This document shows positions 1 to 32,610 of a stretch of DNA of 64,000 nucleotides, one piece after another. Within the stretch, counting starts at the first letter, position 1. Each line of letters starts with the position of its first letter. This DNA is from Escherichia coli (GTDB lineage: Bacteria > Pseudomonadota > Gammaproteobacteria > Enterobacterales > Enterobacteriaceae): the NCBI RefSeq assembly GCF_016026235.1, contig NZ_CP065613.1; one strand, written 5' to 3'. Both the position numbers and the translations under genes were made by a program. The notes beneath the pieces are model-generated. The model saw only the letters and a list, made by a program, of their open reading frames with translations, was not told where the DNA came from and did no database searches.

Positions 1-881
1 AATAAACCATGGTGATTTCCCGGCAGTACGAGCTTTAGCCGTCACCGATGGTCTGGTTGCTCTTTCCTTCGAGCGTTTAAATCAACGACCTTTAGGCTTA
101 CTTTTATAAAGATAAAAATGCCCTTCATGTTGTGCATTTTTATCTCGACCCAGCAGGCCTTCACCTAAATAAATTGCTGTCGTTGATGCTTTTGTGCCTG
201 AGTCCGACACCTTTTCCCAGCCATTACCAACATTGTAATAATGATTGCCCAGTACCCGGCAAATATAGGTCCAGCCACGGGAGCGGAGCTGTTGGAACCA
301 TCGCCCCTGAAAACCGGCATCTGTAATAACAATGACATCAGTCCCGGGGGAAAAGCACTCAGCAAGCGATTCCAGAAAACGCTCATGTACATCTGCATTC
401 GCTGTCTGTGATGATGGAACGACACAACTCATCAACGGTAAAGAACGCCCGTCACATGCCAGGCTTGCCCGCAAAAGCTGAAAACGAGAGGCATGATAAG
501 CACTCCAGTCAATGAGTATCACAACACGAGACATTCCCCGCGTAATCTTTTGGGTAATTCGCTGAAAAATGGTGGAAACCTCATTTTGCAAATGTCGATT
601 CCCCAACAGTCGATCCACCCGCTTTATTTTGTTTTTAACTGATGCCGTACCGGTTAAATGACGCCCGATACTGGTAAGTGTGAGGGAAGCGCCATTTATT
701 ACAGCATTAGTTGCGTCAATCAGTGATTTTTGACGGTAAAGATGCAAAGGGGCCAGTATGTTGTTAAGGAAATTTTGGCATAATGAACGTGCAGGCATAG
801 TGGTGATCTCCTTGAAATTGTTAGCACAATCAATTAGATCACATCTCACTATGCCTGTCTTGTTTTCTGGGGATTCCTCAG
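1..881 (-). mobile_element. IS10-like (IS4-family) insertion sequence, copy 1, partial (runs off the left edge); outside end CTGAGGAATCCCC at 869-881
   Basis: Encoded protein has IS10-type motifs (KRVDRLLGNRHL, ILIDWS, VITDAGF); terminal sequence resembles the IS10 outside end; bases 7544-8303 are an inverted copy of the same element. Confidence 0.8.
82..798 (-). CDS. IS10-like transposase, 238 codons ending at an in-frame TGA (82-84); the same frame continues transposase-like beyond it
   Basis: ORF track 82..1125 from internal Met (MPARSLCQNF...); identical over 225 aa to the copy at 7627-8303; resemblance to IS10 Tnp is from memory. Confidence 0.75.
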   Translation of the reverse strand: MPARSLCQNFLNNILAPLHLYRQKSLIDATNAVINGASLTLTSIGRHLTGTASVKNKIKRVDRLLGNRHLQNEVSTIFQRITQKITRGMSRVVILIDWSAYHASRFQLLRASLACDGRSLPLMSCVVPSSQTANADVHERFLESLAECFSPGTDVIVITDAGFQGRWFQQLRSRGWTYICRVLGNHYYNVGNGWEKVSDSGTKASTTAIYLGEGLLGRDKNAQHEGHFYLYKSKPKGR

Positions 882-2027
882 GGAAATATCCTGCATTAAC
901 GCAGGCCACGCCCGATACCAGCCAGGGCGTTGCAAAAGCGCCGGAACATGCTGATAACGCTGTAGAATATCCCACAGCAGGCTGCGCTCGACGTTGTGAT
1001 GATAAAGCGCAAACAGATTTTGCGGCTCGCGGTGCTGGCAGGCGCTTATCAGCGTTTGTGCCGCCGCCTGCGCGCCAGTCAGCGCCATATCCATGCCGCG
1101 CACGGAAATTCCGGTATTGACGCAACTGCGCAACGCATCGCCCACCAGCAGCCAGCCGTTACCGGCGTATTGCACCGGCATACTGTGCAAGCCACCTTCT
1201 GGCACCAGATGCGCACCATACTCCAGTGATTCCGTGTTTTTGATAAGCGGGCGCACTGCCGGATGCGCTTTAAAGCGAGTCAGCAGCTCGCTTGCCGGAA
1301 CACGACTTTGCGTAAGGGAAGAGAGCGGGCAAACAATCCCTAACGAGAGCGTTTGTTGATTAGTATAAAGAAATGCGCCGCTGGGTAAGTCATCACAGAT
1401 CCTGCCGCTGAACAGCAACGCTGCGCCTTCGTTATTCTCCAGATGAAAACGTTCTTCAATAGCGGATGTTTCCAGCGACAGCACTTCTTTGATCCCCAAC
1501 GCCATCGCTTCGCCAGCAGGACGAGTCACTAACCCGTGACGTTCAGCCAGGACGCTGTTGGCACCTTCTGCCAGCACCACATAACGGGCGCGGAGAATAT
1601 CGTCACCACAAATGACACCACACACTCTGCCGTTTTCTTCATACAGTGCATCCACCGTCGCACCAGGGATGCATTCGACACCTTCTTTTTCGGCTTCGGC
1701 AACCAGCCACGGATCGAACCGTGCACGTAATACACTCCAGGATTCACCGCCGGGCTGTAAGCTGGAAAACGTCGTTGCGCCATCCGGCGTTAACAGGGAA
1801 AGGCTTTCGTGAGTGATGCGTCGTTCAAGAGGCGCGGTCAGATGAAACTGAGGGAGGAGTTCCGCGAGTGCATGGGTATATAACCGCCCGCCGGAAAGAT
1901 TTTTGCTGCCGGGGATTTCAGCGCGTTCCAGTAACAAAACGGATAAACCCGCTCGCGCGCAGCGTAACGCGCAAGCGGTGCCTGCAATACCGGCACCAAT
2001 AATAATAATGTCGCAGTCGTCTTCCAT
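882..2027 (-). pseudogene. ygcN: ygcN (FixC-like FAD-dependent oxidoreductase), 3' end truncated by the IS insertion at 881
   Basis: N-terminal FAD motif DIIIIGAGIAG; ORF runs into IS sequence about 40 codons short of the ~423 aa I recall for K-12 YgcN; start codon (2027 vs 2057) uncertain. Confidence 0.7.
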
Positions 2028-2104
2028 GTCATGCCCCAGATATCCAGAACACAACACCCTAACATAGCGTTACTTAAGGGAAATTGACCGCCGACACACT
2101 CTTA

Positions 2105-2470
2105 TCATTCGCCGCGATAGATACAACCAGCGGTGCAGGTTTCTTTTACCATCACCGCACTTAACAGCGGCACAACGGGTTTAACCTGATCCCAAATCCA
2201 TTTTGCTAAAACTTCGCTGGTCGGGTTTTCCAGGCCTGGAATATCATTGAGATAATGGTGATCGAGGCGCTCATAAGTTGGCTTAAACGCTGCTTTCAGT
2301 TCAGCGAAATCGATAATCCAGCCCGTATGCGGATCGACTTCCCCGGTAATTTCCAGTCGCACCATAAAGGAATGCCCGTGCAGGCGACCACATTTATGCC
2401 CTTCCGGGACGTGTGGTAAGCGGTGAGCGGCTTCGAAGGTGAAATCTTTAAATAACGTGGTGGACATCAT
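2105..2470 (-). CDS. queD: 6-carboxy-5,6,7,8-tetrahydropterin synthase QueD
   Basis: 121-aa product [35 protein letters not shown]...; divergent from cysJ as in E. coli. Confidence 0.9.
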
Positions 2471-2785
2471 AATTTCTCTACAGGACGATAAAACCGCCGT
2501 AGAGTACCGGAAAGGCTGTTTTTTCGCATTATCTAAAACGACTTTGTTGCGCAAAATCGCTGATTTATCTTAATGATTGGCTAAATTCATTTGTTTTTCA
2601 TTAGGTTGGTTAATCTATTTTGTTGTTAAAGACTATTGCTAAAACAGGTTAGTCGATTTGGTTATTAGTTATCGCTATCCCGTCTTTAATCCACACCGTT
2701 CACCCCGTTAACCTTACCTTCTCTTCTGTTTTATGGGCGCTGACAGGGCGCAGAAACAGCTTTGCTTACTGGAACATAACGACGC

Positions 2786-4585
2786 ATGACGACACAGGTC
2801 CCACCTTCCGCGTTGCTTCCGTTGAACCCGGAGCAACTGGCACGCCTTCAGGCGGCCACGACCGATTTAACTCCCACCCAGCTTGCCTGGGTTTCTGGCT
2901 ATTTCTGGGGCGTGCTCAATCAGCAGCCTGCTGCGCTTGCAGCAACGCCAGCGCCAGCCGCAGAAATGCCGGGTATAACTATTATCTCCGCCTCGCAAAC
3001 CGGCAATGCGCGCCGGGTTGCTGAAGCATTACGTGATGATTTATTAGCGGCAAAACTGAACGTTAAGCTGGTGAACGCGGGCGACTATAAATTCAAACAA
3101 ATCGCCAGCGAAAAACTGCTTATCGTGGTGACGTCAACGCAAGGAGAAGGGGAACCGCCGGAAGAAGCCGTCGCGCTGCATAAGTTCCTGTTCTCCAAAA
3201 AAGCGCCGAAGCTGCAAAACACCGCATTTGCCGTGTTTAGCCTCGGCGATAGCTCTTATGAATTTTTCTGCCAGTCCGGGAAAGATTTTGACAGCAAGCT
3301 GGCGGAACTGGGCGGTGAACGCCTGCTCGACCGTGTCGATGCCGACGTTGAATACCAGACCGCTGCCAGCGAGTGGCGCGCTCGCGTGGTTGATGCGCTT
3401 AAATCGCGTGCGCCTGTCGCGGCACCTTCGCAATCCGTCGCTACTGGCGCGGTAAATGAAATCCACACCAGCCCGTACAGCAAAGACTCGCCGCTGGTGG
3501 CGAGCCTCTCTGTTAACCAGAAAATTACCGGGCGTAACTCTGAAAAAGACGTTCGCCATATCGAAATTGACTTAGGTGACTCGGGCCTGCGTTACCAGCC
3601 GGGTGACGCGCTGGGCGTCTGGTATCAGAACGATCCGGCACTGGTGAAAGAACTTGTCGAACTGCTGTGGCTGAAAGGCGATGAACCTGTCACCGTCGAG
3701 GGCAAAACGTTGCCTCTGAACGAAGCGCTACAGTGGCACTTCGAACTGACCGTCAACACCGCCAATATTGTTGAGAACTATGCCACGCTTACCCGCAGCG
3801 AAACGCTGTTGCCGCTGGTGGGCGATAAAGCGAAGTTACAGCATTACGCCGCGACTACGCCGATTGTCGATATGGTGCGCTTCTCTCCGGCGCAACTGGA
3901 CGCCGAAGCGCTGATTAATCTGCTGCGCCCGCTGACGCCGCGTCTCTATTCCATCGCCTCCTCGCAGGCGGAAGTCGAGAACGAAGTACACGTCACCGTT
4001 GGTGTGGTGCGTTACGACGTGGAAGGCCGCGCCCGTGCCGGTGGTGCCTCCAGCTTCCTCGCGGACCGCGTGGAAGAAGAGGGCGAAGTTCGCGTATTTA
4101 TCGAACATAACGATAACTTCCGCCTGCCCGCTAACCCGGAAACCCCGGTGATTATGATTGGCCCAGGCACCGGCATCGCGCCGTTCCGCGCCTTTATGCA
4201 GCAGCGCGCCGCTGACGAAGCGCCGGGTAAAAACTGGCTGTTCTTTGGCAACCCGCATTTTACGGAAGATTTCCTCTACCAGGTGGAGTGGCAGCGCTAC
4301 GTCAAAGAGGGCGTGCTGACACGTATCGATCTCGCCTGGTCGCGCGATCAAAAAGAAAAAGTTTACGTACAAGACAAACTGCGCGAACAGGGCGCGGAGC
4401 TGTGGCGCTGGATCAATGACGGTGCCCACATTTATGTCTGCGGCGACGCTAATCGCATGGCGAAAGACGTTGAGCAGGCACTTCTGGAAGTGATTGCCGA
4501 ATTTGGTGGCATGGACACCGAAGCGGCGGATGAATTTTTAAGTGAGCTGCGCGTAGAGCGCCGTTATCAGCGAGATGTCTACTAA
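2786..4585 (+). CDS. cysJ: Sulfite reductase [NADPH] flavoprotein alpha subunit
   Basis: 599-aa ORF, flavodoxin plus FAD/NADPH reductase domains, first gene of cysJIH. Confidence 0.95.
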
Positions 4586-6297
4586 TGAGCGAAAAACATC
4601 CAGGGCCTTTAGTGGTCGAAGGAAAACTGACAGACGCCGAGCGCATGAAGCTTGAAAGCAACTACCTGCGCGGCACCATTGCGGAAGATTTAAACGACGG
4701 TCTGACCGGCGGCTTTAAGGGCGACAACTTCCTGCTGATCCGCTTCCACGGCATGTATCAGCAGGATGACCGCGACATCCGCGCCGAACGTGCTGAACAG
4801 AAGCTGGAGCCGCGCCACGCGATGCTGTTGCGCTGCCGTCTGCCGGGTGGGGTGATTACCACTAAACAGTGGCAGGCGATCGACAAATTTGCCGGTGAAA
4901 ACACCATCTATGGCAGCATTCGCCTGACCAACCGCCAGACGTTTCAGTTCCACGGCATTCTGAAAAAGAACGTCAAACCGGTGCACCAGATGCTGCACTC
5001 GGTCGGTCTTGATGCGCTGGCGACCGCTAACGACATGAACCGTAACGTACTCTGCACCTCGAACCCTTACGAGTCGCAGCTACACGCGGAAGCGTATGAA
5101 TGGGCGAAGAAAATCTCTGAACATCTGCTGCCGCGTACCCGCGCGTATGCGGAGATCTGGCTCGATCAGGAAAAAGTCGCCACCACCGATGAAGAACCGA
5201 TCCTCGGCCAGACCTACCTGCCGCGTAAATTCAAAACCACGGTAGTGATCCCGCCACAGAACGATATCGATCTGCACGCCAACGACATGAACTTCGTGGC
5301 AATCGCCGAAAACGGCAAGCTGGTGGGCTTTAACCTGCTGGTGGGCGGTGGGCTTTCCATCGAACACGGCAACAAGAAAACCTACGCCCGCACCGCGAGT
5401 GAGTTTGGCTATCTGCCGCTGGAGCATACGCTGGCAGTGGCGGAAGCCGTCGTGACAACTCAGCGTGACTGGGGTAACCGAACCGATCGTAAAAATGCCA
5501 AAACCAAATACACGCTGGAGCGCGTGGGGGTTGAGACGTTTAAAGCGGAAGTGGAGCGTCGCGCGGGGATCAAATTCGAGCCGATTCGCCCGTATGAGTT
5601 TACCGGACGCGGAGATCGTATTGGCTGGGTTAAGGGCATTGATGATAACTGGCACCTGACGCTGTTTATCGAAAATGGTCGCATCCTTGATTATCCGGGG
5701 CGTCCGCTGAAAACCGGCCTGCTGGAGATCGCGAAGATCCACAAAGGCGATTTCCGCATTACGGCGAACCAGAATCTGATCATCGCCGGTGTGCCGGAAA
5801 GCGAGAAAGCGAAGATCGAGAAGATCGCTAAAGAGAGCGGGTTAATGAATGCCGTCACGCCGCAGCGTGAAAACTCAATGGCCTGCGTGTCATTCCCGAC
5901 TTGCCCGCTGGCGATGGCGGAAGCGGAGCGTTTCCTGCCGTCTTTTATCGACAACATCGATAATTTAATGGCGAAACATGGTGTCAGCGATGAGCATATC
6001 GTGATGCGTGTAACAGGCTGCCCGAACGGTTGTGGTCGCGCGATGCTGGCGGAAGTGGGCCTGGTGGGTAAAGCGCCGGGTCGCTACAACCTGCATCTTG
6101 GCGGCAACCGTATTGGGACACGTATCCCACGGATGTATAAAGAAAACATCACCGAGCCGGAAATCCTGGCGTCGCTTGATGAACTGATAGGGCGCTGGGC
6201 GAAAGAGCGCGAAGCGGGTGAAGGCTTCGGCGACTTTACGGTGCGTGCGGGCATCATTCGCCCGGTGCTCGATCCGGCGCGCGATTTGTGGGATTAA
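4585..6297 (+). CDS. cysI: Sulfite reductase [NADPH] hemoprotein beta subunit
   Basis: 570-aa ORF, start overlaps cysJ stop (ATGA). Confidence 0.95.
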
Positions 6298-6313
6298 CCA
6301 TCAGCCCGGTCTT

Positions 6314-6350
6314 GTAGGCCTGATAAGACGCGTGAGCGTCGCATCAGGCA
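6314..6350. repeat. REP-like palindromic unit in the cysI-cysH spacer
   Basis: GTAGGCCTGATAAGACGCG...GCGTCGCATCAGGCA inverted repeat. Confidence 0.6.
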
Positions 6351-6370
6351 AGGCAAACAGTGAGGAATCT

Positions 6371-7105
6371 ATGTCCAAACTCGATCTAAACGCCCTGAAC
6401 GAACTGCCGAAGGTAGATCGCATTCTGGCGCTGGCGGAAACTAACGCCCAACTGGAAAAACTGGACGCTGAAGGCCGCGTAGCTTGGGCGCTGGATAATC
6501 TGCCCGGTGAATATGTACTTTCTTCCAGCTTTGGCATTCAGGCGGCGGTGAGCCTGCATCTGGTGAATCAAATTCGCCCGGATATTCCGGTGATCCTCAC
6601 CGATACCGGTTACTTGTTCCCGGAAACCTACCGCTTTATTGACGAGTTAACGGACAAACTCAAGCTCAACCTGAAAGTGTACCGTGCTACCGAAAGCGCA
6701 GCCTGGCAGGAAGCACGCTACGGAAAACTGTGGGAACAGGGCGTTGAAGGCATTGAAAAGTACAATGACATCAACAAAGTCGAACCGATGAACCGGGCGC
6801 TGAAAGAACTTAACGCGCAAACGTGGTTTGCTGGCCTGCGCCGTGAACAATCCGGCAGCCGCGCCAATTTACCGGTGCTGGCAATTCAGCGTGGCGTATT
6901 TAAAGTGCTGCCGATTATCGACTGGGATAACCGAACGATATATCAGTATCTGCAAAAGCATGGCCTGAAATATCACCCATTATGGGACGAAGGATATTTA
7001 TCGGTGGGCGATACCCATACAACCCGTAAATGGGAACCCGGCATGGCGGAAGAAGAAACGCGTTTCTTTGGCTTAAAAAGGGAATGTGGGTTACACGAAG
7101 GGTAA
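6371..7105 (+). CDS. cysH: Phosphoadenosine phosphosulfate (PAPS) reductase
   Basis: 244-aa product [31 protein letters not shown]...; the ORF track extends upstream, start chosen at MSKLD. Confidence 0.93.
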
Positions 7106-7122
7106 ATATTGCCGGATAAATT

Positions 7123-7160
7123 AAACGCCTCTGTCAGAAATGATGGGGGCGTTTTTATTT
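7123..7160 (+). terminator. Putative rho-independent terminator of cysJIH
   Basis: AAACGCCTC...GGGGGCGTTT stem followed by TTTTATTTT immediately after the cysH stop. Confidence 0.45.
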
Positions 7161-7368
7161 TGCGAGCAGCATTCCTGATTTTAAACGTGAACGCCGCTGG
7201 AAGAATTATCAGGTATAGAATGGCGTCGGGTGCTTGAGGCTGTCTGGCGTTAAGCATTCGCGAGGTTCCAGATGGACAAAAGCCCCAGGCGATATTTCTA
7301 TCAACCTGAGGCTCGCGTTCGAACGTAGCAATTCGAATGTTAGTCTCTTCTTTGCAGGGAGGCAAGAC

Positions 7369-7521
7369 ATGCTGACAAAATATGCCCTTGTGGCAATCAT
7401 AGTGCTGTGTTTTACAGTACTGGGATTCACGCTGATGGTAGGCGACTCGTTGTGTGAGTTGAGTATCAGAGAACGTGGTATGGAGTTTAAGGCTGTTCTC
7501 GCTTACGAATCGAAGAAGTAG
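7369..7521 (+). CDS. hokX: Hok/Gef-family type I toxin (50 aa) with an in-frame upstream Mok-like extension back to 7234; position matches the hokX/sokX locus next to cysH
   Basis: [50 protein letters not shown] carries the Hok motifs SLCE..IR and AYES; SD GGGAGG 7-14 nt upstream; gene name by position, from memory. Confidence 0.7.
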
Positions 7522-7543
7522 CCACCACGCGGGGGTAAAACCC

Positions 7544-8303
7544 CTGAGGAATCCCCAGAAAACAAGACAGGCATAGTGAGATGTGATCTAATTGATTGTG
7601 CTAACAATTTCAAGGAGATCACCACTATGCCTGCACGTTCATTATGCCAAAATTTCCTTAACAATATACTGGCCCCTTTGCATCTTTACCGTCAAAAATC
7701 ACTGATTGACGCAACTAATGCTGTAATAAATGGCGCTTCCCTCACACTTACCAGTATCGGGCGTCATTTAACCGGTACGGCATCAGTTAAAAACAAAATA
7801 AAGCGGGTGGATCGACTGTTGGGGAATCGACATTTGCAAAATGAGGTTTCCACCATTTTTCAGCGAATTACCCAAAAGATTACGCGGGGAATGTCTCGTG
7901 TTGTGATACTCATTGACTGGAGTGCTTATCATGCCTCTCGTTTTCAGCTTTTGCGGGCAAGCCTGGCATGTGACGGGCGTTCTTTACCGTTGATGAGTTG
8001 TGTCGTTCCATCATCACAGACAGCGAATGCAGATGTACATGAGCGTTTTCTGGAATCGCTTGCTGAGTGCTTTTCCCCCGGGACTGATGTCATTGTTATT
8101 ACAGATGCCGGTTTTCAGGGGCGATGGTTCCAACAGCTCCGCTCCCGTGGCTGGACCTATATTTGCCGGGTACTGGGCAATCATTATTACAATGTTGGTA
8201 ATGGCTGGGAAAAGGTGTCGGACTCAGGCACAAAAGCATCAACGACAGCAATTTATTTAGGTGAAGGCCTGCTGGGTCGAGATAAAAATGCACAACATGA
8301 AGG
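7544..8303 (+). mobile_element. IS10-like insertion sequence, copy 2, truncated (outside end plus 5' part of transposase), interrupted by IS4
   Basis: Begins CTGAGGAATCCCC 22 bp after the hok stop; inverted duplicate of 1-881; ends where the IS4 left end begins. Confidence 0.8.
7627..8303 (+). pseudogene. IS10-like transposase truncated after codon 225 by the IS4 insertion (the ORF reads 9 more codons into IS4)
   Basis: Identical to the 82-798 product up to ...DKNAQHEG, then diverges into the IS4 left end. Confidence 0.8.
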
Positions 8304-9729
8304 TAATGCCGATCAGTTAAGGATCAGTTGACCGATCCAGTGGCTGTGTAAGAATCCGGAAACGCTCACTTGTTTCCGGATTTTTTTATGCACATTGGAC
8401 AGGCTCTTGATCTGGTATCCCGTTACGATTCTCTGCGTAACCCACTGACTTCTCTGGGGGATTACCTCGACCCCGAACTCATCTCTCGTTGCCTTGCCGA
8501 ATCAGGTACTGTAACGCTACGCAAGCGCCGTCTTCCCCTCGAAATGATGGTCTGGTGTATTGTTGGCATGGCGCTTGAGCGTAAAGAACCTCTTCACCAG
8601 ATTGTGAATCGCCTGGACATCATGCTGCCGGGCAATCGCCCCTTCGTTGCCCCCAGTGCCGTTATTCAGGCCCGCCAGCGCCTGGGAAGTGAGGCTGTCC
8701 GCCGCGTGTTCACGAAAACAGCGCAGCTCTGGCATAACGCCACGCCGCATCCGCACTGGTGCGGCCTGACCCTGCTGGCCATCGATGGTGTGTTCTGGCG
8801 CACACCGGATACACCAGAGAACGATGCAGCCTTCCCCCGCCAGACACATGCCGGGAACCCGGCGCTCTACCCGCAGGTCAAAATGGTCTGCCAGATGGAA
8901 CTGACCAGCCATCTGCTGACGGCTGCAGCCTTCGGCACGATGAAGAACAGCGAAAATGAGCTTGCTGAGCAACTTATAGAACAAACCGGCGATAACACTC
9001 TGACGTTAATGGATAAAGGTTATTACTCACTGGGACTGTTAAATGCCTGGAGCCTGGCGGGAGAACACCGCCACTGGATGATACCTCTCAGAAAGGGAGC
9101 GCAATATGAAGAGCTCAGAAAACTGGGTAAAGGCGATCATCTGGTGAAGCTGAAAACCAGCCCGCAGGCACGAAAAAAGTGGCCGGGACTGGGAAATGAA
9201 GTGACAGCCCGCCTGCTGACCGTGACGCGCAAAGGAAAAGTCTGCCATCTGCTGACGTCGATGACGGACGCCATGCGCTTCCCCGGAGGAGAAATGGCGG
9301 ATCTGTACAGTCATCGCTGGGAAATCGAACTGGGATACAGGGAGATAAAACAGACGATGCAACTGAGCAGGCTGACGCTGAGAAGTAAAAAGCCGGAGCT
9401 TGTGGAGCAAGAGCTGTGGGGTGTCTTACTGGCTTATAATCTGGTGAGATATCAGATGATTAAAATGGCGGAACATCTGAAAGGTTACTGGCCGAATCAA
9501 CTGAGTTTCTCAGAATCATGCGGAATGGTGATGAGAATGCTGATGACATTGCAGGGCGCTTCACCGGGACGTATACCGGAGCTGATGCGCGATCTTGCAA
9601 GTATGGGACAACTTGTGAAATTACCGACGAGAAGGGGAAGGGCCTTCCCGAGAGTGGTAAAGGAGAGGCCCTGGAAATACCCCACAGCCCCGAAAAAGAG
9701 CCAGTCAGTTGCTTAACTGACTGGCATTA
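8304..9729 (+). mobile_element. IS4, complete 1426-bp element with imperfect terminal inverted repeats (TAATGCCGATCAGTTAAGG ... CTTAACTGACTGGCATTA)
   Basis: Length, terminal repeats and encoded InsG match IS4; flanks (ACAACATGAAGG left, CGACATTTGCCG right) are not a direct repeat. Confidence 0.9.
8388..9716 (+). CDS. insG: IS4 transposase InsG (442 aa)
   Basis: [36 protein letters not shown]... near-identical to E. coli IS4 transposase as remembered. Confidence 0.92.
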
Positions 9730-9764
9730 CGACATTTGCCGGGGTTATGAGCATAACGTAATGC

Positions 9765-11282
9765 TTATTTCACCGGACGCATCGCCGGGAACAGAATAAC
9801 ATCGCGGATGGTATGGCTGTTGGTGAACAGCATTACCATACGGTCGATACCAATCCCCAGACCTGCTGTCGGCGGTAAGCCATGTTCCAGTGCGGTAACG
9901 TAATCTTCATCGTAGAACATCGCTTCGTCGTCACCTGCGTCTTTCGCGGCAACCTGATCCAGGAAGCGTTGCGCCTGATCTTCCGCGTCATTCAGCTCGC
10001 TAAAGCCGTTACCGATTTCACGACCACCGATGAAGAACTCAAAGCGGTCTGTGATTTCCGGGTTAATGTCGTTACGACGCGCCAGCGGAGAAACTTCTGC
10101 CGGATATTCAGTAATAAAGGTCGGCTGAATCAGATGTGCTTCTGCCACTTCTTCGAAGATCTCGGTAACGATACGGCCCAGACCCCAGCTCTTCTCAACG
10201 TGGATACCGATAGATTCAGCAATCGCTTTCGCAGAGTCGAAGTTATCCAGATCCGCCATGTCGGTTTCTGGGCGATATTTCTTGATCGCTTCACGCATGG
10301 TCAGTTTTTCGAACGGTTTACCGAAGTCCAGCGTCACGTCGCCGTAGGTCACTTCCGTCTTACCGAGAATATCCTGTGCCAGAGTACGGAACAGCGATTC
10401 GGTCAGCTCGATCAGATCTTTGTAATCTGCGTAAGCCATGTAGAGTTCCATCATGGTGAACTCTGGGTTATGACGTACGGAGATACCTTCGTTACGGAAG
10501 TTACGGTTGATTTCGAATACACGCTCGAAGCCACCGACCACCAGACGCTTGAGGTACAGTTCCGGCGCGATACGCAGGTACATGTCGAGATCCAGCGCGT
10601 TATGGTGGGTGATAAACGGACGCGCAGCGGCACCGCCAGGGATCACCTGCATCATCGGCGTTTCAACTTCCATAAAGCCGCGGTTCACCATGAACTGGCG
10701 AATACCAGAGAGGATCTGCGAGCGTACTTTAAAGGTGTTACGGGATTCATCGTTAGAGATGAGATCCAAATAACGCTGACGATAGCGCGCTTCCTGATCC
10801 TGCAAGCCGTGGAATTTATCCGGCAGCGGACGCAGTGCTTTGGTCAGCAGACGCAGCTCGGTACAGTGGATAGACAGTTCGCCGGTTTTGGTTTTGAACA
10901 GTTTACCTTTCGCGCCGAGGATGTCGCCGAGGTCCCATTTTTTGAACTGCTCGTTGTAAACGCCTTCCGGCAGATCGTCACGGGCAACGTACAGCTGAAT
11001 GCGGCCCCCCACATCCTGCAGGGTAACGAAAGACGCTTTACCCATAATACGACGGGTCATCATGCGGCCAGCAACGGCGACTTCGATGTTCAGCGCTTCC
11101 AGTTCTTCGTTCTCTTTACCGTCGAATTCTGCGTGCAATTGGTCAGAGGTATGATCGCGACGGAAATCGTTCGGGAAGGCAATCCCCTGCTCGCGCAGGT
11201 TCACCAGCTTCTCACGACGCGTTTTCAGTTCATTGTTAAGATCGACTACCGCGTCAGCGCCCTGTGCGTGTTGTTCAGACAT
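9765..11282 (-). CDS. lysS: Lysyl-tRNA synthetase, constitutive
   Basis: 505-aa class II aaRS; directly downstream of prfB. Confidence 0.95.
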
Positions 11283-14219: not shown

Positions 14220-14930
14220 TTATTTACCGCTGGTCATTTTTTGGTGTTCGTCGAGGAATTCTTTCATCTCTTTCGGCGGCTGGTAACCCGGAACAAGTGT
14301 GCCATTGCTCAGCACAACTGCCGGAGTACCGCTAACGCCAAGCTGGACGCCAAGTGCGTAATGGTCGGCAATATCCACGTCGCAGCTGGCTGGTGCGACG
14401 CTTTTACCTGCCATCACATCATCAAACGCTTTGTTTTTATCTTTCGCACACCAGATAGCTTTCATTTCTTTCTCTGCATCGCTGTCCAGCCCCTGGCGCG
14501 GGAAAGCAAGATAACGCACGGTGATCCCCAGCGCGTTATAGTCTGCCATTTGCTCATGCAGTTTGTGGCAGTAACCACAGGTAATATCAGTAAACACGGT
14601 GATGACGTGTTTTTCCTGCGGCGCTTTATAAACGATCATCTCTTTTTCAAGCGCATTCAACTGCTTTAACAGCATCTTATTGGTGACATTGACCGGAGCC
14701 GTGCCGCTAACGTCATACATTGGCCCCTGAATGATATGTTTACCATCATCGGTGATGTACAACACGCCGCTGTTAGTCAGAACTGTCTTCATGCCAGCTA
14801 CGGGCGCGGGCTGAATATCGCTGCTTTTGATGCCCATTTTGGCTAACGTTTGTTGAATTGCCGCGTCATCAGCCTGAGCAAAACCTGAAAACGCTGCTAA
14901 CAAAGTAAACAACATAAAACCTTTCTTCAT
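14220..14930 (-). CDS. dsbC: Periplasmic disulfide isomerase DsbC
   Basis: 236 aa, signal peptide, CGYC active site. Confidence 0.95.
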   Translation of the reverse strand: MKKGFMLFTLLAAFSGFAQADDAAIQQTLAKMGIKSSDIQPAPVAGMKTVLTNSGVLYITDDGKHIIQGPMYDVSGTAPVNVTNKMLLKQLNALEKEMIVYKAPQEKHVITVFTDITCGYCHKLHEQMADYNALGITVRYLAFPRQGLDSDAEKEMKAIWCAKDKNKAFDDVMAGKSVAPASCDVDIADHYALGVQLGVSGTPAVVLSNGTLVPGYQPPKEMKEFLDEHQKMTSGK

Positions 14931-14954
14931 AAATCTTCCCGTTCTTTTCAGACA

Positions 14955-15851
14955 TCACGCCCGCGGGTGATGCTGTTGATGAAGTTGCCGCAGACGCTCG
15001 GTAGCGACATGCGTATAAATTTGCGTGGTGGAGAGATCGCTGTGGCCCAGTAGCATCTGCACCACGCGTAAATCCGCACCATGATTTAATAAATGAGTGG
15101 CAAAAGCGTGACGCAACACATGCGGTGACAGCTTTTCGCTGTCGATACCCGCCAGCACGGCATAATGTTTAATACGGTGCCAGAAGGTCTGTCGCGTCAT
15201 CTGCTGCGCACGCTGGCTGGGAAACAACACGTCAATTGACACACCATTCAGCAGCCACGGACGCCCATGTTCCAGATAGGTCTCCAACCAGTAAACCGCC
15301 TCTTCACCTAACGGCACCAGGCGCTCTTTGTTGCCTTTACCAATGACCCGCACTACGCCCTGACGCAGGCTGATATCACTCATTGTCAGTCCGACCAGTT
15401 CAGAGACACGCAGCCCGGTAGCATACAACACTTCAAGCATGGCTTTATCGCGTAGCTCCAGTGGCTGATCAATTAATGGTGCCTGTAATAAACGTTCAAC
15501 CTGCGCTTCGCTTAAATCTTTTGGCAAACGCTGGGGCAATTTCGGTGAAGCGAGATGCGCACTGGGATCGTCTTCACGAAACTTTTCGCGATAAAGATAC
15601 TGGAACAATCGGCGCACTGCACTCAGCAAACGCGCTGAGCTGGTGGCTTTATACCCGCCCTCCAGCCGTTCTGCCAGTAATGCCTGCAAATCGTCACTTT
15701 GCGCCGTCGCCAGCGTCAACCCGCGGTGATGCAACCACTCCACCATCATTGACAGATCGCGACGGTAAGCGTTCAACGTATTTTCAGCCAGATTTTTTTC
15801 CAGCCACAGAGCATCAAGAAACTGCTCGATGCGTGCCAGATCCTGTTTCAC
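14955..15851 (-). CDS. xerD: Tyrosine site-specific recombinase XerD
   Basis: 298 aa, C-terminal catalytic HxxR...Y motif region. Confidence 0.95.
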   Translation of the reverse strand: MKQDLARIEQFLDALWLEKNLAENTLNAYRRDLSMMVEWLHHRGLTLATAQSDDLQALLAERLEGGYKATSSARLLSAVRRLFQYLYREKFREDDPSAHLASPKLPQRLPKDLSEAQVERLLQAPLIDQPLELRDKAMLEVLYATGLRVSELVGLTMSDISLRQGVVRVIGKGNKERLVPLGEEAVYWLETYLEHGRPWLLNGVSIDVLFPSQRAQQMTRQTFWHRIKHYAVLAGIDSEKLSPHVLRHAFATHLLNHGADLRVVQMLLGHSDLSTTQIYTHVATERLRQLHQQHHPRA

Positions 15852-15962
15852 TTGCGCCCCTTATGGTCACTCATTTGATCCATTATGCCTTATTGTGCCG
15901 TGACTAAAGCGATTCTGATACACTAGCTGCAAAAGCCACAGCAGAATCGAGAAGCTTACGTT

Positions 15963-16484
15963 ATGAATATGGGTCTTTTTTACGGTTCCAGCACCTGTTA
16001 CACCGAAATGGCGGCAGAAAAAATCCGCGATATTATCGGCCCAGAACTGGTGACCTTACATAACCTCAAGGACGACTCCCCGAAATTAATGGAGCAGTAC
16101 GATGTGCTCATTCTGGGTATCCCGACCTGGGATTTTGGTGAAATCCAGGAAGACTGGGAAGCCGTCTGGGATCAGCTCGACGACCTGAACCTTGAAGGTA
16201 AAATTGTTGCGCTGTATGGGCTTGGCGATCAACTGGGATACGGCGAGTGGTTCCTCGATGCGCTCGGTATGCTGCATGACAAACTCTCGACCAAAGGCGT
16301 GAAGTTCGTCGGCTACTGGCCAACGGAAGGATATGAATTTACCAGCCCGAAACCGGTGATTGCTGACGGGCAACTGTTCGTGGGTCTGGCGCTGGATGAA
16401 ACTAACCAGTATGACCTTAGCGACGAGCGTATTCAGAGCTGGTGCGAGCAAATCCTCAACGAAATGGCAGAGCATTACGCCTGA
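15963..16484 (+). CDS. fldB: Flavodoxin 2
   Basis: 173-aa flavodoxin fold. Confidence 0.93.
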
Positions 16485-16523
16485 TCTCACTGACGGCTTA
16501 GCGCATATGCTTTGCCGTCATCT

Positions 16524-17190
<667 letters not shown>

Positions 17191-17420: not shown

Positions 17421-18401
17421 ATGGCTTTTACACCTTTTCCTCCACGTCAGCCTACGGCTTCTGCCCGTTTACCGCTGACGCTGATGACGCTTGATGACTG
17501 GGCGCTTGCCACCATTACTGGCGCGGACAGCGAAAAATATATGCAGGGCCAGGTGACAGCAGATGTCAGCCAGATGACAGAAAATCAGCACCTGCTCGCC
17601 GCCCATTGCGACGCCAAAGGTAAAATGTGGAGCAATTTACGTCTGTTCCGCGACGGCGATGGCTTTGCGTGGATTGAACGGCGCAGCGTGCGTGAATCGC
17701 AGCTGACTGAACTGAAAAAATATGCGGTGTTCTCTAAAGTGACCATCGCGCCAGACGACGAGCGTGTGCTGCTTGGTGTTGCCGGTTTTCAGGCGCGCGC
17801 CGCGCTGGCTAATCTCTTTAGTGAACTACCTTCGAGAGAAAAACAGGTAGTTAAAGAAGGCGCGACCACTTTGCTATGGTTTGAACACCCGGCAGAACGT
17901 TTCCTGATCGTAACCGATGAAGCTACTGCCAATATGCTGACCGATAAACTGCGCGGTGAAGCGGAACTGAACAATAGCCAACAGTGGCTGGCATTAAACA
18001 TTGAAGCGGGTTTCCCGGTGATTGATGCCGCCAACAGCGGGCAGTTTATTCCACAGGCGACCAATCTCCAGGCGCTGGGCGGTATCAGCTTTAAGAAAGG
18101 CTGCTATACCGGACAAGAGATGGTGGCGCGAGCAAAATTCCGTGGTGCCAACAAACGCGCGCTCTGGTTGCTGACAGGTAGTGCCAGCCGACTGCCGGAA
18201 GCTGGTGAAGACTTAGAGCTGAAAATGGGCGAGAACTGGCGTCGTACCGGTACGGTGCTGGCTGCGGTAAAACTGGAAGATGGTCAGGCCGTGGTACAGG
18301 TCGTCATGAATAACGATATGGAACCGGACAGCATCTTCCGCGTGCGTGACGATGCGAATACACTGCATATCGAACCGCTGCCGTATTCGCTCGAAGAGTA
18401 A
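17421..18401 (+). CDS. ygfZ: tRNA-modifying, folate-binding protein YgfZ
   Basis: 326 aa, GcvT-like fold, conserved position. Confidence 0.92.
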
Positions 18402-27426: not shown

Positions 27427-28605
27427 TCAACGCGCCACCCAACCGAGGGTGCGCTGCGCCAGCACATCGCGTGCCGGGGTGAATAATTCCATCGTCATCA
27501 GTCCGATGTTGCGCCCGACAACCAGCGGTGCCCAACGGTTGGCAAAAAGATGTACCAGGCTGTCCGTGACGCCGATGGTTGCTTCGCGATCGCTCTGTCG
27601 ACGCTGCTGATAGCGGCACAATATGCCGTAATCACCGATGTCTTCTCCGCGCTCATGCGCCTGAGTCAGGGTTTCCGCAAGGCTCATGACATCTCGCATA
27701 CCGAGGTTAAACCCTTGCCCGGCAATCGGGTGCAGAGTTTGCGCCGCATTGCCCACCAGCACGGTACGATGGGTAATAGCTCTGGCGGCGCGGGTTAACG
27801 CCAGCGGATAAGCACTGCGTTTACCGGCGTGGGTAATTTTTCCAAGTCGCCAGCCAAAGGCCGACTGGAGTTCACGGCAAAACTTCTCGTCGCTCCACGA
27901 CAGCACCTCTTCGCGCCGTTCCAGTGGATGACACCAGACCAGCGAACAGCGTCCGTCAGACATCGGCAACATCGCCAGCGGGCCATGTTGCGTGAAGCGT
28001 TCAAAAGCGCGGCCTTCGTGCGCAACGGAAGTCGCAACGTTGGCAATCACGGCCAGTTGTTCGTAAGGCTCCTGCTGCCAGTCAACGCCGCACGCGGTGG
28101 CTAACGCTGAATGGGTGCCATCAGCTGCTACCAGCACGCGGCCCGTCAGCGTCTCGCCACTCTCCAGCGTCACTTCAACGTGACTCTGAGTACGGGCAAC
28201 GTTAGCTACGCGATCGGGGCAATGCAGCGTTACGCCAGGTGCTTTACGCAGCAATGCAAACAGCCGTTGCCCGACATTGTGCAATTCGACAACCTGTCCC
28301 AGCGCCGCCAGTTGGTAATCTTCTGCGGCGAGGGTGACAAATCCAGCGTGACCACGATCGCTGACATGCACGGTGGTGATGGCAGTTGCGCAATCCGCCA
28401 GAGATTGCCAGACGCCGATGCGCGCCAGTTGCTGACAGGTACCCGCCGCCAGCGCTATCGCTCGTCCATCAAAGCCCGGATGAGCATGTGACTCTGGCGC
28501 AGTCGCTTCAATCAAATGTACCGGCAGCGCCCCGTGACTTAACCGGGAAATAGCCAGCGCCAGCGTCGCGCCCGCCATGCCGCCACCGACGATGATTACG
28601 CTCAT
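27427..28605 (-). CDS. ubiH: 2-octaprenyl-6-methoxyphenol hydroxylase UbiH
   Basis: 392-aa FAD monooxygenase. Confidence 0.93.
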   Translation of the reverse strand: MSVIIVGGGMAGATLALAISRLSHGALPVHLIEATAPESHAHPGFDGRAIALAAGTCQQLARIGVWQSLADCATAITTVHVSDRGHAGFVTLAAEDYQLAALGQVVELHNVGQRLFALLRKAPGVTLHCPDRVANVARTQSHVEVTLESGETLTGRVLVAADGTHSALATACGVDWQQEPYEQLAVIANVATSVAHEGRAFERFTQHGPLAMLPMSDGRCSLVWCHPLERREEVLSWSDEKFCRELQSAFGWRLGKITHAGKRSAYPLALTRAARAITHRTVLVGNAAQTLHPIAGQGFNLGMRDVMSLAETLTQAHERGEDIGDYGILCRYQQRRQSDREATIGVTDSLVHLFANRWAPLVVGRNIGLMTMELFTPARDVLAQRTLGWVAR

Positions 28606-29927
28606 TGCTTTCTCGCAGCAGCCATCAACGCTTCGATTTCTTCCGGCTTTTTCACCACGCTGGCGGTGAGGTTTTCGTTACCGGTTTCGGTAATCACAAT
28701 GTCGTCTTCAATACGAATGCCGATACCGCGATATTGTTCTGGCACATCCGCATCCGGCGCGATATACAGACCAGGCTCTACGGTCAGTACCATCCCCGGT
28801 TCCAGAATGCGCGAGCGATCCTGACCATAAACGCCAACGTCATGGACATCCAGTCCTAACCAGTGGCTAAGGCCATGCATAAAGAAAGGACGATGGGCGT
28901 TCTGAGCGATCAGTTCATCAACATCACCTTTCAGGATGCCGAGTTTTACCAGGCCGCTAACCATGATGCGCACCACTTCACCAGTGACTTCCAGAATGGA
29001 AGTTCCCGGACGATACAGGCGCAGGCTGGTTTCGAGAGACTCCAGCACAATGTCGTAGATTTCACGCTGGGCCTGGGTGAATTTGCCGTTGACCGGGAAG
29101 GTGCGGGTAATATCGCCCGCGTAACCTTTGTATTCACAACCCGCGTCAATCAACACCAGGTCACCGTCGCGCAGTTCACTCTCGTTTTCGGTGTAGTGCA
29201 GAATGCAGCCGTTTTCACCGCTGCCGACAATGGTGTTATAGGACGGATAGCGCGCACCGTGGCGGTTAAATTCGTGGTGAATTTCGCCTTCCAGATGGTA
29301 CTCGAACATTCCCGGACGGCATTTTTCCATCGCCCGTGTATGTGCCATGGCGGTGATTTCTCCCGCGCGGCGGAGTACGGCAATCTCTTCTGGCGATTTG
29401 AACAGGCGCATTTCATGAACAACAGGACGCCAGTCGATCATCGTTGCCGGTGCGGTGAGATTTTGCCGCGAACCTTTACGCAGTTTTTCCAGCGCACTGT
29501 TCACGATTTCATCAGCATATGCATATTCGCCCTGGGCATGGTAAACCACATCCAGGCCGTTAAGTAGTTGATAAAGTTGCTGATTGATTTCGCTGAATGC
29601 CAGTGCGCGGTCAACGCCCAGTTTCTCTGGCGCGGCATCCTGGCCTAAGCGACGGCCAAACCAGATCTCCGCCGTCAGGTCGCGAACGCGGTTAAACAGA
29701 ACGCTGTGGTTATGAGTGTCATCGCTTTTAATCAGCACCAGCACCGCTTCCGGTTCGTTAAAGCCGGTGAAGTACCAGAAGTCACTGTTCTGACGATAGG
29801 GGTATTCGCTGTCGGCGCTACGTGTTACTTCTGGTGCAGCAAAAATCAGCGCGGCGCTGCCGGGTTGCATTTGCTCCACCAAGGCCTGACGGCGACGCTG
29901 AAACTCTTGCCGAGATATCTCACTCAT
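28602..29927 (-). CDS. pepP: Xaa-Pro aminopeptidase PepP
   Basis: 441 aa from MSEISRQEFQRRRQALVEQMQ...; overlaps ubiH start by 4 bp. Confidence 0.92.
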   Translation of the reverse strand: MSEISRQEFQRRRQALVEQMQPGSAALIFAAPEVTRSADSEYPYRQNSDFWYFTGFNEPEAVLVLIKSDDTHNHSVLFNRVRDLTAEIWFGRRLGQDAAPEKLGVDRALAFSEINQQLYQLLNGLDVVYHAQGEYAYADEIVNSALEKLRKGSRQNLTAPATMIDWRPVVHEMRLFKSPEEIAVLRRAGEITAMAHTRAMEKCRPGMFEYHLEGEIHHEFNRHGARYPSYNTIVGSGENGCILHYTENESELRDGDLVLIDAGCEYKGYAGDITRTFPVNGKFTQAQREIYDIVLESLETSLRLYRPGTSILEVTGEVVRIMVSGLVKLGILKGDVDELIAQNAHRPFFMHGLSHWLGLDVHDVGVYGQDRSRILEPGMVLTVEPGLYIAPDADVPEQYRGIGIRIEDDIVITETGNENLTASVVKKPEEIEALMAAARKQ

Positions 29928-31327: not shown

Positions 31328-31876
31328 ATGATTCGGCAACGTCGTCGTGCGTTAACGCCGGAACAACAGCAGGAAATGGGTCAACAAGCCGCTACCCGGA
31401 TGATGACTTATCCCCCGGTGGTGATGGCGCATACGGTCGCTGTATTCCTCTCTTTTGATGGTGAACTCGACACCCAGCCGCTAATAGAACAACTCTGGCG
31501 CGCCGGTAAGCGCGTATATCTTCCAGTTTTGCATCCCTTTAGTGCCGGTAATTTGCTGTTCCTGAATTACCATCCGCAAAGCGAACTGGTGATGAACAGG
31601 TTGAAGATCCATGAGCCAAAACTGGATGTGCGTGACGTGCTACCCCTTTCCCGATTAGACGTGCTGATCACACCGCTGGTCGCCTTTGATGAGTACGGTC
31701 AGCGCCTGGGAATGGGCGGTGGTTTTTATGATCGGACCTTACAAAACTGGCAGCACTATAAAACGCAACCGGTGGGTTATGCGCATGATTGTCAGTTGGT
31801 GGAAAAACTCCCCGTTGAAGAGTGGGATATCCCTCTTCCTGCGGTGGTTACACCGTCGAAAGTCTGGGAGTGGTAA
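31328..31876 (+). CDS. ygfA: 5-formyltetrahydrofolate cyclo-ligase (YgfA/Fau), co-transcribed with ssrS
   Basis: 182 aa from MIRQRRRALTPEQQQEMGQQ...; an alternative start at 31274 gives 200 aa. Confidence 0.88.
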   Translation: MIRQRRRALTPEQQQEMGQQAATRMMTYPPVVMAHTVAVFLSFDGELDTQPLIEQLWRAGKRVYLPVLHPFSAGNLLFLNYHPQSELVMNRLKIHEPKLDVRDVLPLSRLDVLITPLVAFDEYGQRLGMGGGFYDRTLQNWQHYKTQPVGYAHDCQLVEKLPVEEWDIPLPAVVTPSKVWEW

Positions 31877-31937
31877 GGGCGATACACCTGCATCGCGCTG
31901 ATTGACATCGTTGATTCTTTAACCTAATTTAGTGAGT

Positions 31938-32082
31938 AAGGGTAAGGGAGGATTGCTCCTCCCCTGTGACTGACTGTTAATAAGCTGGGAAACTTATGAG
32001 TAACAGTACAATCAGTATGATGGCAAGTCGCATCATAACCCTTCTCCTTCAAGCCCTCGCTTCGGTGAGGGCTTTACCGTTA
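31938..32082 (+). ncRNA. sibC: Sib antisense RNA (type I antitoxin), copy 1; ends approximate
   Basis: Promoter TTGACA-17bp-TAATTT at 31902-31930; fully overlaps the ibs ORF on the opposite strand; hairpin AAGCCCTCGCTTCGGTGAGGGCTTT at 32051-32075. Confidence 0.5.
31977..32036 (-). CDS. ibsC: Ibs-family type I toxin, 19 aa (MMRLAIILIVLLLISFPAY)
   Basis: Reverse complement of 31977-32036 translates to an Ibs peptide; SD GGAGAAGGG upstream on the minus strand. Confidence 0.75.
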   Translation of the reverse strand: MMRLAIILIVLLLISFPAY

Positions 32083-32329
32083 CAGCCCCATGCTGCCCAG
32101 TTATCGTAAGCTCTCTTTAAATAACCGCAACGCATTGATCTACCTTTAAATCTTTTCTTCGAGCGCGCTCGAAAAACCCCATGCAAAACAGAGATAATTT
32201 TTGGGAAAAAGGATCTATTACGGCAGTAAACGTGGGCGATGAAGTGGCTATCAAAAAGTTCGGTTCAGGGCGATGCACCCCGCATCGCCCTGATTGACAT
32301 CGTTGATTCTTTGACCTAATTTAGTGAGT

Positions 32330-32474
32330 AAGGGTAAGGGAGGATGACTCCTCCCCTGAGACTGACTGTTAATAAGCTCCGAAACTTATCAGTAACAGTA
32401 CAATCAGTATGATGACAAGTCGCATCATAACCCTTCTCCTTTAAGCCCTCGCTTCGGTGAGGGCTTTACCGTTA
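32330..32474 (+). ncRNA. Sib antisense RNA, copy 2; ends approximate
   Basis: Same promoter and hairpin as copy 1, shifted 392 bp. Confidence 0.5.
32369..32428 (-). CDS. Ibs-family type I toxin, 19 aa (MMRLVIILIVLLLISFGAY), second copy
   Basis: Reverse complement of 32369-32428; differs from copy 1 at two residues. Confidence 0.75.
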   Translation of the reverse strand: MMRLVIILIVLLLISFGAY

Positions 32475-32610
32475 CAGCCCCATGCTGTCCCGCCATCGTA
32501 AATCCCCATTAAATAAACACAACGCATTGATCTGAGTTTGATTTATTTTCTGGAGCAGACTCGCAAAGTAGAATGCGCAACGCGGCAACGGTGTGGAGAA
32601 GGGATAAAAA

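Follow-up and report, generated by a model that had tools for sequence, protein, structure and literature searches.

Type I-E CRISPR-Cas locus very probably moved away from cysH by an ISEc60 insertion and an IS-IS inversion in Escherichia coli

The 64,000-nucleotide stretch of Escherichia coli DNA analysed here (the window; assembly GCF_016026235.1, contig NZ_CP065613.1) raises the question of where the type I-E CRISPR-Cas locus of this genome is. The region directly 3' of cysH, 7106-7543, is a hok/sok type I toxin-antitoxin locus that is followed by an insertion sequence (IS). In K-12 the annotated order at this place is cysH-sokX-cas3...cas2-array-iap. The initial annotation had given this layout correctly, with the refinement that K-12 has sokX only, without hok; the homology of K-12 to the window ends exactly at the hok ATG. 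In the window the hok stop codon (TAG) is at 7519-7521 and the IS end CTGAGGAATCCCC begins at 7544, which leaves 22 nt between them. The IS10-like element noticed 22 bp after hok is indeed there, and it is ISEc60.

No trace of the locus was detected in the window itself. The 29-nt type I-E repeat gave 0 matches in the 64 kb with up to 3 mismatches allowed, and no tandem repeats or spaced direct-repeat arrays were found there. A tblastn search of the window with the K-12 (E2) Cas proteins returned nothing better than E=0.05. The cas-E1 proteins had no match in the window at E<=0.1, and cas-E1 DNA had none by blastn. The absence of cas open reading frames (ORFs) and of a CRISPR array from the 64 kb was thus borne out by the repeat, array, protein and DNA searches.

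The locus is present elsewhere on the same contig. The window corresponds to positions 3,752,383 down to 3,688,384 (reverse) of contig UGFA01000002.1 in GCA_900449985.1, with 100% identity over 18.3 kb. A look-up with the iap protein placed the order iap-array-cas2-cas1-casE-casD-casC-casB-casA-cas3-ISEc60 at 3,871,151-3,892,188 of this contig. A look-up with the N-terminal fragment of Cas3 extended the order on the other side, with ygfK-ssnA-ygfM-xdhD-ISEc60-cas3'-cas3''-casA-casB-casC-casD-casE-cas1-cas2-array-iap-cysD at 3,862,089-3,883,225. The ISEc60 adjoining cas3 is full length (1294 bp, 396-amino-acid (aa) transposase). The start of cas3 is at record position 3,872,089, which is 119.7 kb past the left edge of the window. 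From there to the stop codon of hok the distance is 127.2 kb, compared with 192 nt in ordinary E. coli. The order cysH-hok-cas3 is found in ordinary E. coli that have the same CasA; among the matches returned by a CasA look-up there were only standard cysH-hok-cas3 genomes and draft contigs that end in the IS. A look-up with XdhD for an independent assembly with xdhD-ISEc60-cas3 gave standard contexts only among those returned, for a protein that is in 53,151 blocks. The initial annotation had considered the locus either displaced or deleted. Displacement is the case in the source genome, whereas deletion is found in the relative FDAARGOS_943 and not here. It had proposed to look for cas genes beside the reciprocal IS junction; this cas3 adjoins an ISEc60 whose flank completes the target duplication of the window.

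The flanks of the two ISEc60 copies suggest how the locus was moved. When the window flank ...CACGCGGGGGTAAAACCC-IRL is joined to the cas3-side flank IRR-GGGTAAAACCCCGCGTATTGAATTGTG..., where IRL and IRR are the left and right inverted repeats, the result is the hok-cas3 spacer as it stands without interruption in strain EC2641, except that GGGTAAAACC(C) is present twice. Over a longer distance the flanks are ...GTAGCCACCACGCGGGGGTAAAACCC-IRL in the window and IRR-GGGTAAAACCCCGCGTATTGAATTGTGATGG... at the cas3-side ISEc60. The last 10-11 nt of 7522-7543, GGGTAAAACC(C), represent one copy of the duplicated ISEc60 target. The two copies of this duplication, GGGTAAAACC[C], which belongs to one insertion, are now apart, one at the window junction and the other at the cas3 junction. 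From this match, both flanks read as the two sides of one insertion, now 126 kb apart. The hok region of EC2641 is 100% identical to that of the window, and its Hok, CysH, CysI and CysJ are identical to those of FDAARGOS_943.

The other flank of the cas3-side copy comes from a different place. Its IRL-side flank (...CTGGAGGATCGCCC) has the very sequence that an ISEc60 in xanQ of FDAARGOS_943 has on its xdhD side. FDAARGOS_943 is the closest complete genome (100.0% identical to the window over 24 kb). The xanQ copy in FDAARGOS_943 has its own duplication, AGGATCGCC(C), and is inverted relative to the hok copy. The cas3-side ISEc60 therefore carries the left flank of the xanQ copy and the right flank of the hok copy, as is expected of a recombinant. 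The hok-side copy has the left flank of the hok copy; the right flank of the xanQ copy is not observable there, since ISEc60 is cut at nt 760 by IS4. In comparison with FDAARGOS_943, the orientation of hok-cysHIJ and of xdhD is reversed and that of lysS, cas3 and iap is unchanged, as read from the ends of the segment of about 126 kb. The inverted block extends over record positions 3,744,841-3,870,613 (125.8 kb). The split duplication, the hybrid flank and the flipped orientations together indicate homologous recombination between two inverted ISEc60 copies. It is very probable that an IS insertion followed by this IS-IS inversion displaced the type I-E locus by about 127 kb from cysH. The evidence supports the second ISEc60, in the 5' end of xanQ, as the recombination partner rather than the IS4 of the window, which refines the initial annotation.

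Three states are found in one lineage: a simple insertion in GCA_901482675.2, a deletion in FDAARGOS_943 and the inversion in the genome of the window. In GCA_901482675.2, which matches the window at 99.9% identity over 7.3 kb, the order is cysH-hok-ISEc60-cas3...cas2-array-iap with an intact cas3 (899 aa). It keeps the predicted intermediate before the inversion. This genome also bears on the scenario that would make the gap in the window unremarkable, in which the lineage never had cas genes beside cysH. About half of E. coli are without cas-E at this locus, according to PMC12736100 and PMC3903273. The order in GCA_901482675.2, a close relative, excludes this scenario. The operon is also present in the source genome itself, together with the half of the target duplication that matches the window. 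An original absence is therefore extremely unlikely.

In FDAARGOS_943 the order is hok-ISEc60-TAGAATTCCCCGCCCCTGCGG... and then iap, and cas3 through nearly the whole array is gone. This deletion ends exactly at the degenerate terminal CRISPR repeat beside iap (TAGAATTCCCCGCCCCTGCGGTAGAACAC; positions 17539-17570 of the compared stretch). In EC2641 an IS-free internal deletion fuses cas3' to cas2' (14371-16632 of the compared stretch), which is a third independent route of cas-E loss near this lineage.

Since the closest complete genome has hok-ISEc60-iap and the IS4 of the window is joined to lysS, a deletion of cas and CRISPR in the window genome as well could be considered, promoted by ISEc60 next to its insertion as in FDAARGOS_943, with the window junction made by an IS4-IS4 inversion. 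This model was rejected because the same contig carries the whole cas-E1 operon and a 6-repeat array beside iap, and because the ISEc60 beside cas3 is full length, when an IS4-IS4 inversion should have left only nt 761-1294 of it there. This model has almost no chance of being correct.

Recombination between existing copies must also be separated from a rearrangement driven by the transposase, for example by intramolecular transposition of ISEc60 or of a composite of two copies. Deletions and inversions promoted by IS10-type elements are known. The 6.7-kb ygcN'-cysJIH-hok block of the window lies between two inverted ISEc60 copies with their IRLs facing inward, which is in keeping with such an event. 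However, both parental insertions are present in relatives, unrearranged and with their own duplications (the hok copy in GCA_901482675.2 and FDAARGOS_943, the xanQ copy in FDAARGOS_943). The two flanks of the rearranged copy come from different parents, the mark that recombination between existing copies leaves, and no new target duplication is present. A transposase-driven event is very unlikely.

An assembly artefact, in which the wrong flanks were joined across ISEc60 repeats of about 1.3 kb, would give a similar picture. The arrangement is seen in one assembly only, and the genome is very rich in IS elements, with 34 ISEc60 matches (at least 34 copies) in the sister strain FDAARGOS_943. 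The two new junctions nevertheless agree with each other in flank identity and gene orientation. The hok side also has an IS4 at its exact target and has lost ISEc60 nt 761-1294, which is beyond a simple mis-join. PacBio reads normally span a repeat of 1.3-2.2 kb, which counts against a mis-join as well. An artefact is very improbable.

Several points weigh against recombination between the hok and xanQ copies as the explanation. A clean reciprocal product is not what the hok side shows: the expected xanQ-side flank is missing there, and a later IS4-associated deletion must be assumed. The arrangement is in one long-read assembly only, and the short-read relatives break at the IS. A look-up with the YgfS of the sister strain did not return GCA_900449985.1, but this look-up collapses similar places, so the loss of idi...xanQ' across the genome is not proven. 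The ISEc60 flanks of GCA_901482675.2 (positions 6515-6527 and 7821-7835 of the compared stretch) differ from the window and cas3-side pair by one base each: the left flank has a C more and the right flank a G less, in homopolymer runs in both cases. These differences are attributed to sequencing error or slippage; alternatively, the ISEc60 of GCA_901482675.2 may be an independent insertion one base away. Finally, statements on hok function and CRISPR activity are drawn from sequence only and should be read as predictions.

The proposed series of events begins with the ancestral layout cysH-hok/sok-cas3...cas2-CRISPR-iap of the cas-E1 type. ISEc60 entered the GC-rich hairpin between hok and cas3, 22 nt past the end of the hok ORF. 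Another ISEc60, in the opposite orientation, is in the 5' end of xanQ, downstream of xdhD. Both of these insertions are seen in the compared genomes, while the inversion is proposed from the hybrid flanks. Recombination between the two inverted copies would have flipped the segment of about 126 kb from hok to xdhD. After the flip, cysH-hok would face the lysS side, and cas3...iap would be joined to xdhD/xanQ' about 127 kb away. The order expected on the hok side right after the inversion is hok-ISEc60-xanQ'-guaD-...-idi-lysS.

A later IS4 at the hot spot in the lysS/idi terminator may then have removed idi...xanQ' (about 11 kb, with idi, yqfG, uacT, ygfT, ygfS, ghxQ, guaD and xanQ') and ISEc60 nt 761-1294. 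Like the inversion, this loss is a proposed step. Either IS4 promoted a deletion next to itself that reached a palindromic IS4 target within ISEc60, or two IS4 copies in direct orientation recombined; what is left in the window is compatible with either route. The outcome would be hok-ISEc60(1-760)-IS4-lysS, as in the window.

The elements in the window agree with this outcome. ISEc60 is an IS4-family element with IS10-like CTGA termini, and its likeness to IS10 concerns these termini alone. PGAP names it 'IS4-like element ISEc60 family'. The full element has 1294 bp with the ends CTGAGGAATCCCCAG...CTGGGGATCCCTCAG and encodes a 396-aa DDE_Tnp_1 transposase. Its target duplications are 9-11 bp at three independent sites. 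The copy behind hok (7544-8303, + strand) is the left 760 of 1294 bp, with the IRL and the N-terminal 226 transposase codons, as identified by blastn and an NCBIfam IS4-family transposase match. We infer that it is the hok-side product of the inversion. The truncated transposase runs into 8 IS4-derived codons, which makes a unique fusion ORF. A complete IS4 of 1426 bp follows at 8304-9729 (+ strand), with the ends TAATGCC...GGCATTA and a match to NCBIfam transpos_IS4_1. Its left end abuts ISEc60 nt 760, and on the right it ends at the insertion site in the lysS/idi terminator. As its flanks do not match each other, this is not a simple insertion.

The right flank of the window IS4, CGACATTTGCCGGGGTT..., is the lysS/idi terminator. 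Strains MS 21-1 and RMDEC465 carry a simple IS4 insertion at this lysS/idi site, oriented as in the window and with the 12-bp duplication CGACATTTGCCG (IS4 at positions 1502-2927 of the compared stretches). The site is empty of IS4 in FDAARGOS_943. The hairpin of the convergent idi/lysS terminator (AACCCCGACATTTGCCGGGGTT) is a recurrent IS4 site in unrelated E. coli, including MS 21-1, RMDEC465 and several more. The lysS-proximal half of the lysS/idi spacer is at 9730-9764, and CGACATTTGCCG at 9730-9741 is one copy of the IS4 target duplication, as in the other strains. The lysS stop codon is 35 nt past the IS4 end (9729). The lysS gene (9765-11282, - strand) is about 145 kb from cysH in K-12-like genomes and is followed there by idi.

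The left junction of the IS4 is also at a distinctive site. It lies (8292-8303; ISEc60 nt 738-771) inside GATAAAAATGC-ACAACATGAAGG-GCATTTTTATC, where ACAACATGAAGG is N12. IS4 duplicates 11-13 bp of its target, and palindrome-flanked targets, like the site at ISEc60 nt 760, are preferred by it. The same ISEc60(760)-IS4 junction occurs in five Logan contigs (positions 1188-3372) in another context, with an IS110-family transposase upstream and a different right flank. The IS4 alleles of the window and of the Logan contigs diverge from nt 32 onward. Inheritance of the junction from another copy was considered and dropped, since the differing IS4 alleles point to independent use of the same target. 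The same junction with a different IS4 allele in unrelated contigs supports a hot spot, and ISEc60 seems to carry one for IS4 insertion.

The insertion of ISEc60 also affected the hok locus itself. Rfam 'sok' (RF01794) matches 7228-7384 (+ strand) with 106.7 bits, against a gathering score of 59, and E=4e-25. This region is the 5' leader of the hok mRNA; it includes the region targeted by Sok and, as putative tac end, GGGUGCUUGAGGC. The Sok antisense RNA, a homologue of K-12 sokX, is at 7272-7324 (- strand; 96% over 53 nt by blastn of K-12 sokX). The hok toxin ORF (7369-7521, + strand) is intact with 50 aa by translation. Its product matches Pfam HOK_GEF (PF01848), and the identical protein WP_000956460.1 is annotated by PGAP as Hok/Gef family. 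The NCBIfam models HokA and Hok gave E=9e-16 and 1e-10, both under the curated cut-offs. A ctRNA_p42d match at 7121-7163 was rejected; it is under the gathering score and corresponds to the cysH terminator hairpin.

The 3' end of hok is what has been lost. The segment 7522-7543 (+ strand) is a 22-nt stump of a GC-rich post-hok hairpin (CGCGGGGG-UAAAAC-...), as recognized by comparison of the flanks with EC2641 and the cas3-side junction and by the fold of the intact allele. In the minimum free energy fold of the intact EC2641 allele, nt 1-14 pair with GGUCUCCUGCACCC just before the U-run, and the hairpin after the ORF is also formed (z = -3.7). The cut by ISEc60 at 7544 leaves the window hok with only the 5' arm and loop of the hairpin and without its 3' arm, the fbi and the terminator. 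The fbi and terminator segment is now beside cas3. With the toxin ORF, the leader and the antisense Sok present, and the 3' fbi and terminator absent, the locus is a truncated member of the hok/sok type. Since the hairpin 3' arm, fbi and terminator are lost, the same lesion as that of IS186 at K-12 hokC and hokE, the locus is probably disarmed for post-segregational killing.

In K-12, IS186 is in the loop of the post-hok hairpin at both hokE (GCGGGGA-GTAA-TCCCCGC) and hokC (GGCGGGGA-GTGA-TCCCCGCC), at positions 1489-1508 and 1732-1752 of the compared hokE and hokC stretches. By the K-12 annotation IS186 starts 18-19 nt past the stop codon at these two loci, and not 22 bp past it. Pedersen and Gerdes, writing in Mol Microbiol in 1999, are said to have read IS186 behind hok loci as inactivation. 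According to PMC3562002, the IS186 downstream of gef (hokC) is thought to disrupt the fbi. The hokE of E. coli RMDEC332 has an IS at the same 22-nt offset as the window, in the form of two tandem ISEc60 copies 10 bp apart (4030-7293 of the compared stretch), after which the hairpin 3' arm resumes and a second annotated 'hokE' follows. K-12 hokA has an IS150 upstream, in mokA/sokA, instead of in the post-hok hairpin.

These cases (IS186 at K-12 hokC and hokE; ISEc60 at the cysH-linked hok and at RMDEC332 hokE) raise a tentative and somewhat doubtful possibility. The post-hok GC-rich hairpin could be a convergent hot spot for two IS4-family elements, with insertions kept by disarming hok through removal of the fbi, and could seed recurrent loss or relocation of the type I-E locus in E. 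coli and Shigella. One post-hok hairpin borders cas3, and if the idea is correct, an IS hot spot there would seed cas loss or relocation.

The displaced locus was compared with intact type I-E loci. It is the cas-E1 variant with all eight genes in canonical order. Compared with ordinary E. coli, its CasA has 100% identity and its Cas1 and Cas2 have at least 99.7%. Identity to the K-12 proteins is about 85% for Cas1 and Cas2 and 20-33% for the remaining Cas proteins that have a K-12 match. An 11-bp frameshifting deletion splits cas3 into ORFs of 378 and 521 aa, compared with 899 aa in the intact gene. In casC an in-frame stop after codon 205 (codon 206) is present, compared with 357 aa in the intact gene, and it is common to GCA_901482675.2. 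The array has six 29-nt repeats, CGGTTTATCCCCGCTGGCGCGGGGAACAC, and the degenerate terminal repeat beside iap, and the leader is present. Only cas1-cas2 and the 6-repeat array look intact, so the set required of a functional type I-E system (intact cas3, Cascade, cas1-cas2 and array) is incomplete. Because cas3 is frameshifted and casC has a nonsense codon, interference is presumably lost. The locus also differs from the usual cas-E1 type in that the region upstream of cas3 starts at an ISEc60 end and not at the hok 3' region.

The source genome has further signs of rearrangement and decay. A second ISEc60 is at the left edge of the window (1-881, - strand; IS positions 881..1, with the IRL at 881; 99.9% by blastn against the full ISEc60). 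Its full copy extends beyond the window edge (positions 1962-3255 of the compared stretch of the source genome). It interrupts ygcN, and ygcU'..ygcN' are lost on the far side. The order there is yqcE-ygcW-ygcU'(162 aa)-ISEc60-ygcN'(392 aa, C-terminally truncated). The genes ygcS-ygcR-ygcQ-ygcP-ygcO are missing beside it, which looks like an IS-associated deletion. The 6.7-kb ygcN'-queD-cysJIH-hok block lies between this copy and the hok copy, with both IRLs facing inward. This has the look of a composite transposon and is probably a coincidence. In the source genome the rpoS gene is broken into ORFs of 146+ and 179 aa (positions 1-971 of the compared stretch), and it is annotated as frameshifted in FDAARGOS_943 (27657-28650 of its stretch). 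On the gene's sequence, the split fits what may be a host-restricted, decaying genome.

The rest of the window is ordinary. The cysJIH genes are cysJ (2786-4585), cysI (4585-6297) and cysH (6371-7105), all on the + strand. The last of these was taken from the ORF list and is identical to the annotated cysH of FDAARGOS_943. From lysS to tkt the window is ordinary core genome, colinear with FDAARGOS_943 as the nearest complete genome. A 267-bp direct duplication (31876-32141 and 32267-32533, 91% identity) corresponds to the ibs/sib type I toxin-antitoxin genes, repeated in tandem as ibsC and a second ibs. Their place upstream of serA is the normal E. coli arrangement. At 55112-55120 the yggP site of the window is without an IS1, and FDAARGOS_943 carries IS1A there. 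At 38717-38794, in the meaB/scpA region, there is a length difference of about 77-93 bp relative to FDAARGOS_943, in which meaB is annotated as frameshifted.

The gap in the window could be misread as a loss of CRISPR immunity, when the locus is present, moved by about 127 kb and partly broken. A typing polymerase chain reaction (PCR) with primers cysH-F and cas3E1-R amplifies from cysH into cas3 (PMC3903273). A PCR typing of this kind, or an annotation based on synteny, would score the strain as cas-negative. The insertion, deletion and inversion states of one lineage are available for comparison.

The starting layout and the role of IS elements have precedents. Almendros et al. 2014 (mBio; PMC3903273) describe arrangement A as cysH-hok sok-cas-E1-leader-array-iap. 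They also describe IS entry into the GC-rich spacer between hok sok and cas3, with recombination between IS copies that removes or reshuffles cas genes, and minor iap-cysH variants that are most frequent in IS-rich Shigella-type genomes. The association of hok sok with the cas-E1 variant, and its absence from cas-E2 strains such as K-12, is stated in PMC3903273 and PMC12736100. The present case is alike in its starting layout, in the IS in the hok sok-cas3 spacer and in the reshaping of the locus by IS recombination. In PMC3903273 the elements are IS186 and an uncharacterised 'ISu', with deletions or module replacement within iap-cysH, whereas here ISEc60 and an inversion of about 126 kb moved cas3...iap without deletion.

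The IS186-interrupted K-12 hokC (gef) and hokE are alike in having an IS in the hairpin loop or 3' arm 18-22 nt past the stop codon, with the ORF intact and the fbi and terminator cut off. They differ in the element and its duplication (IS186 with about 4 bp; here ISEc60 with 9-11 bp), and the hok paralogue here is the one adjacent to cysH. In IS-expanded Escherichia and Shigella genomes, such as Shigella and those like enteroinvasive E. coli, recombination between inverted high-copy IS elements routinely flips segments of more than 100 kb and leaves hybrid flanks. The inversion described here does not differ in kind from these. Literature searches for ISEc60 returned, as far as they go, no description of this inversion between hok/cas3 and xanQ. 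The phenomenon is an ordinary IS-driven rearrangement, and IS remodelling of the hok sok/cas3 locus has already been described. It adds one more documented case of an IS in the hairpin behind hok and of iap-cysH remodelling, and no new kind of system. The case is distinguished by the IS involved (ISEc60), by the partner site in xanQ and by an outcome of relocation rather than deletion. A mildly novel thread is the reuse of the post-hok hairpin by two different IS elements, with a possible role in seeding the loss of CRISPR-Cas.

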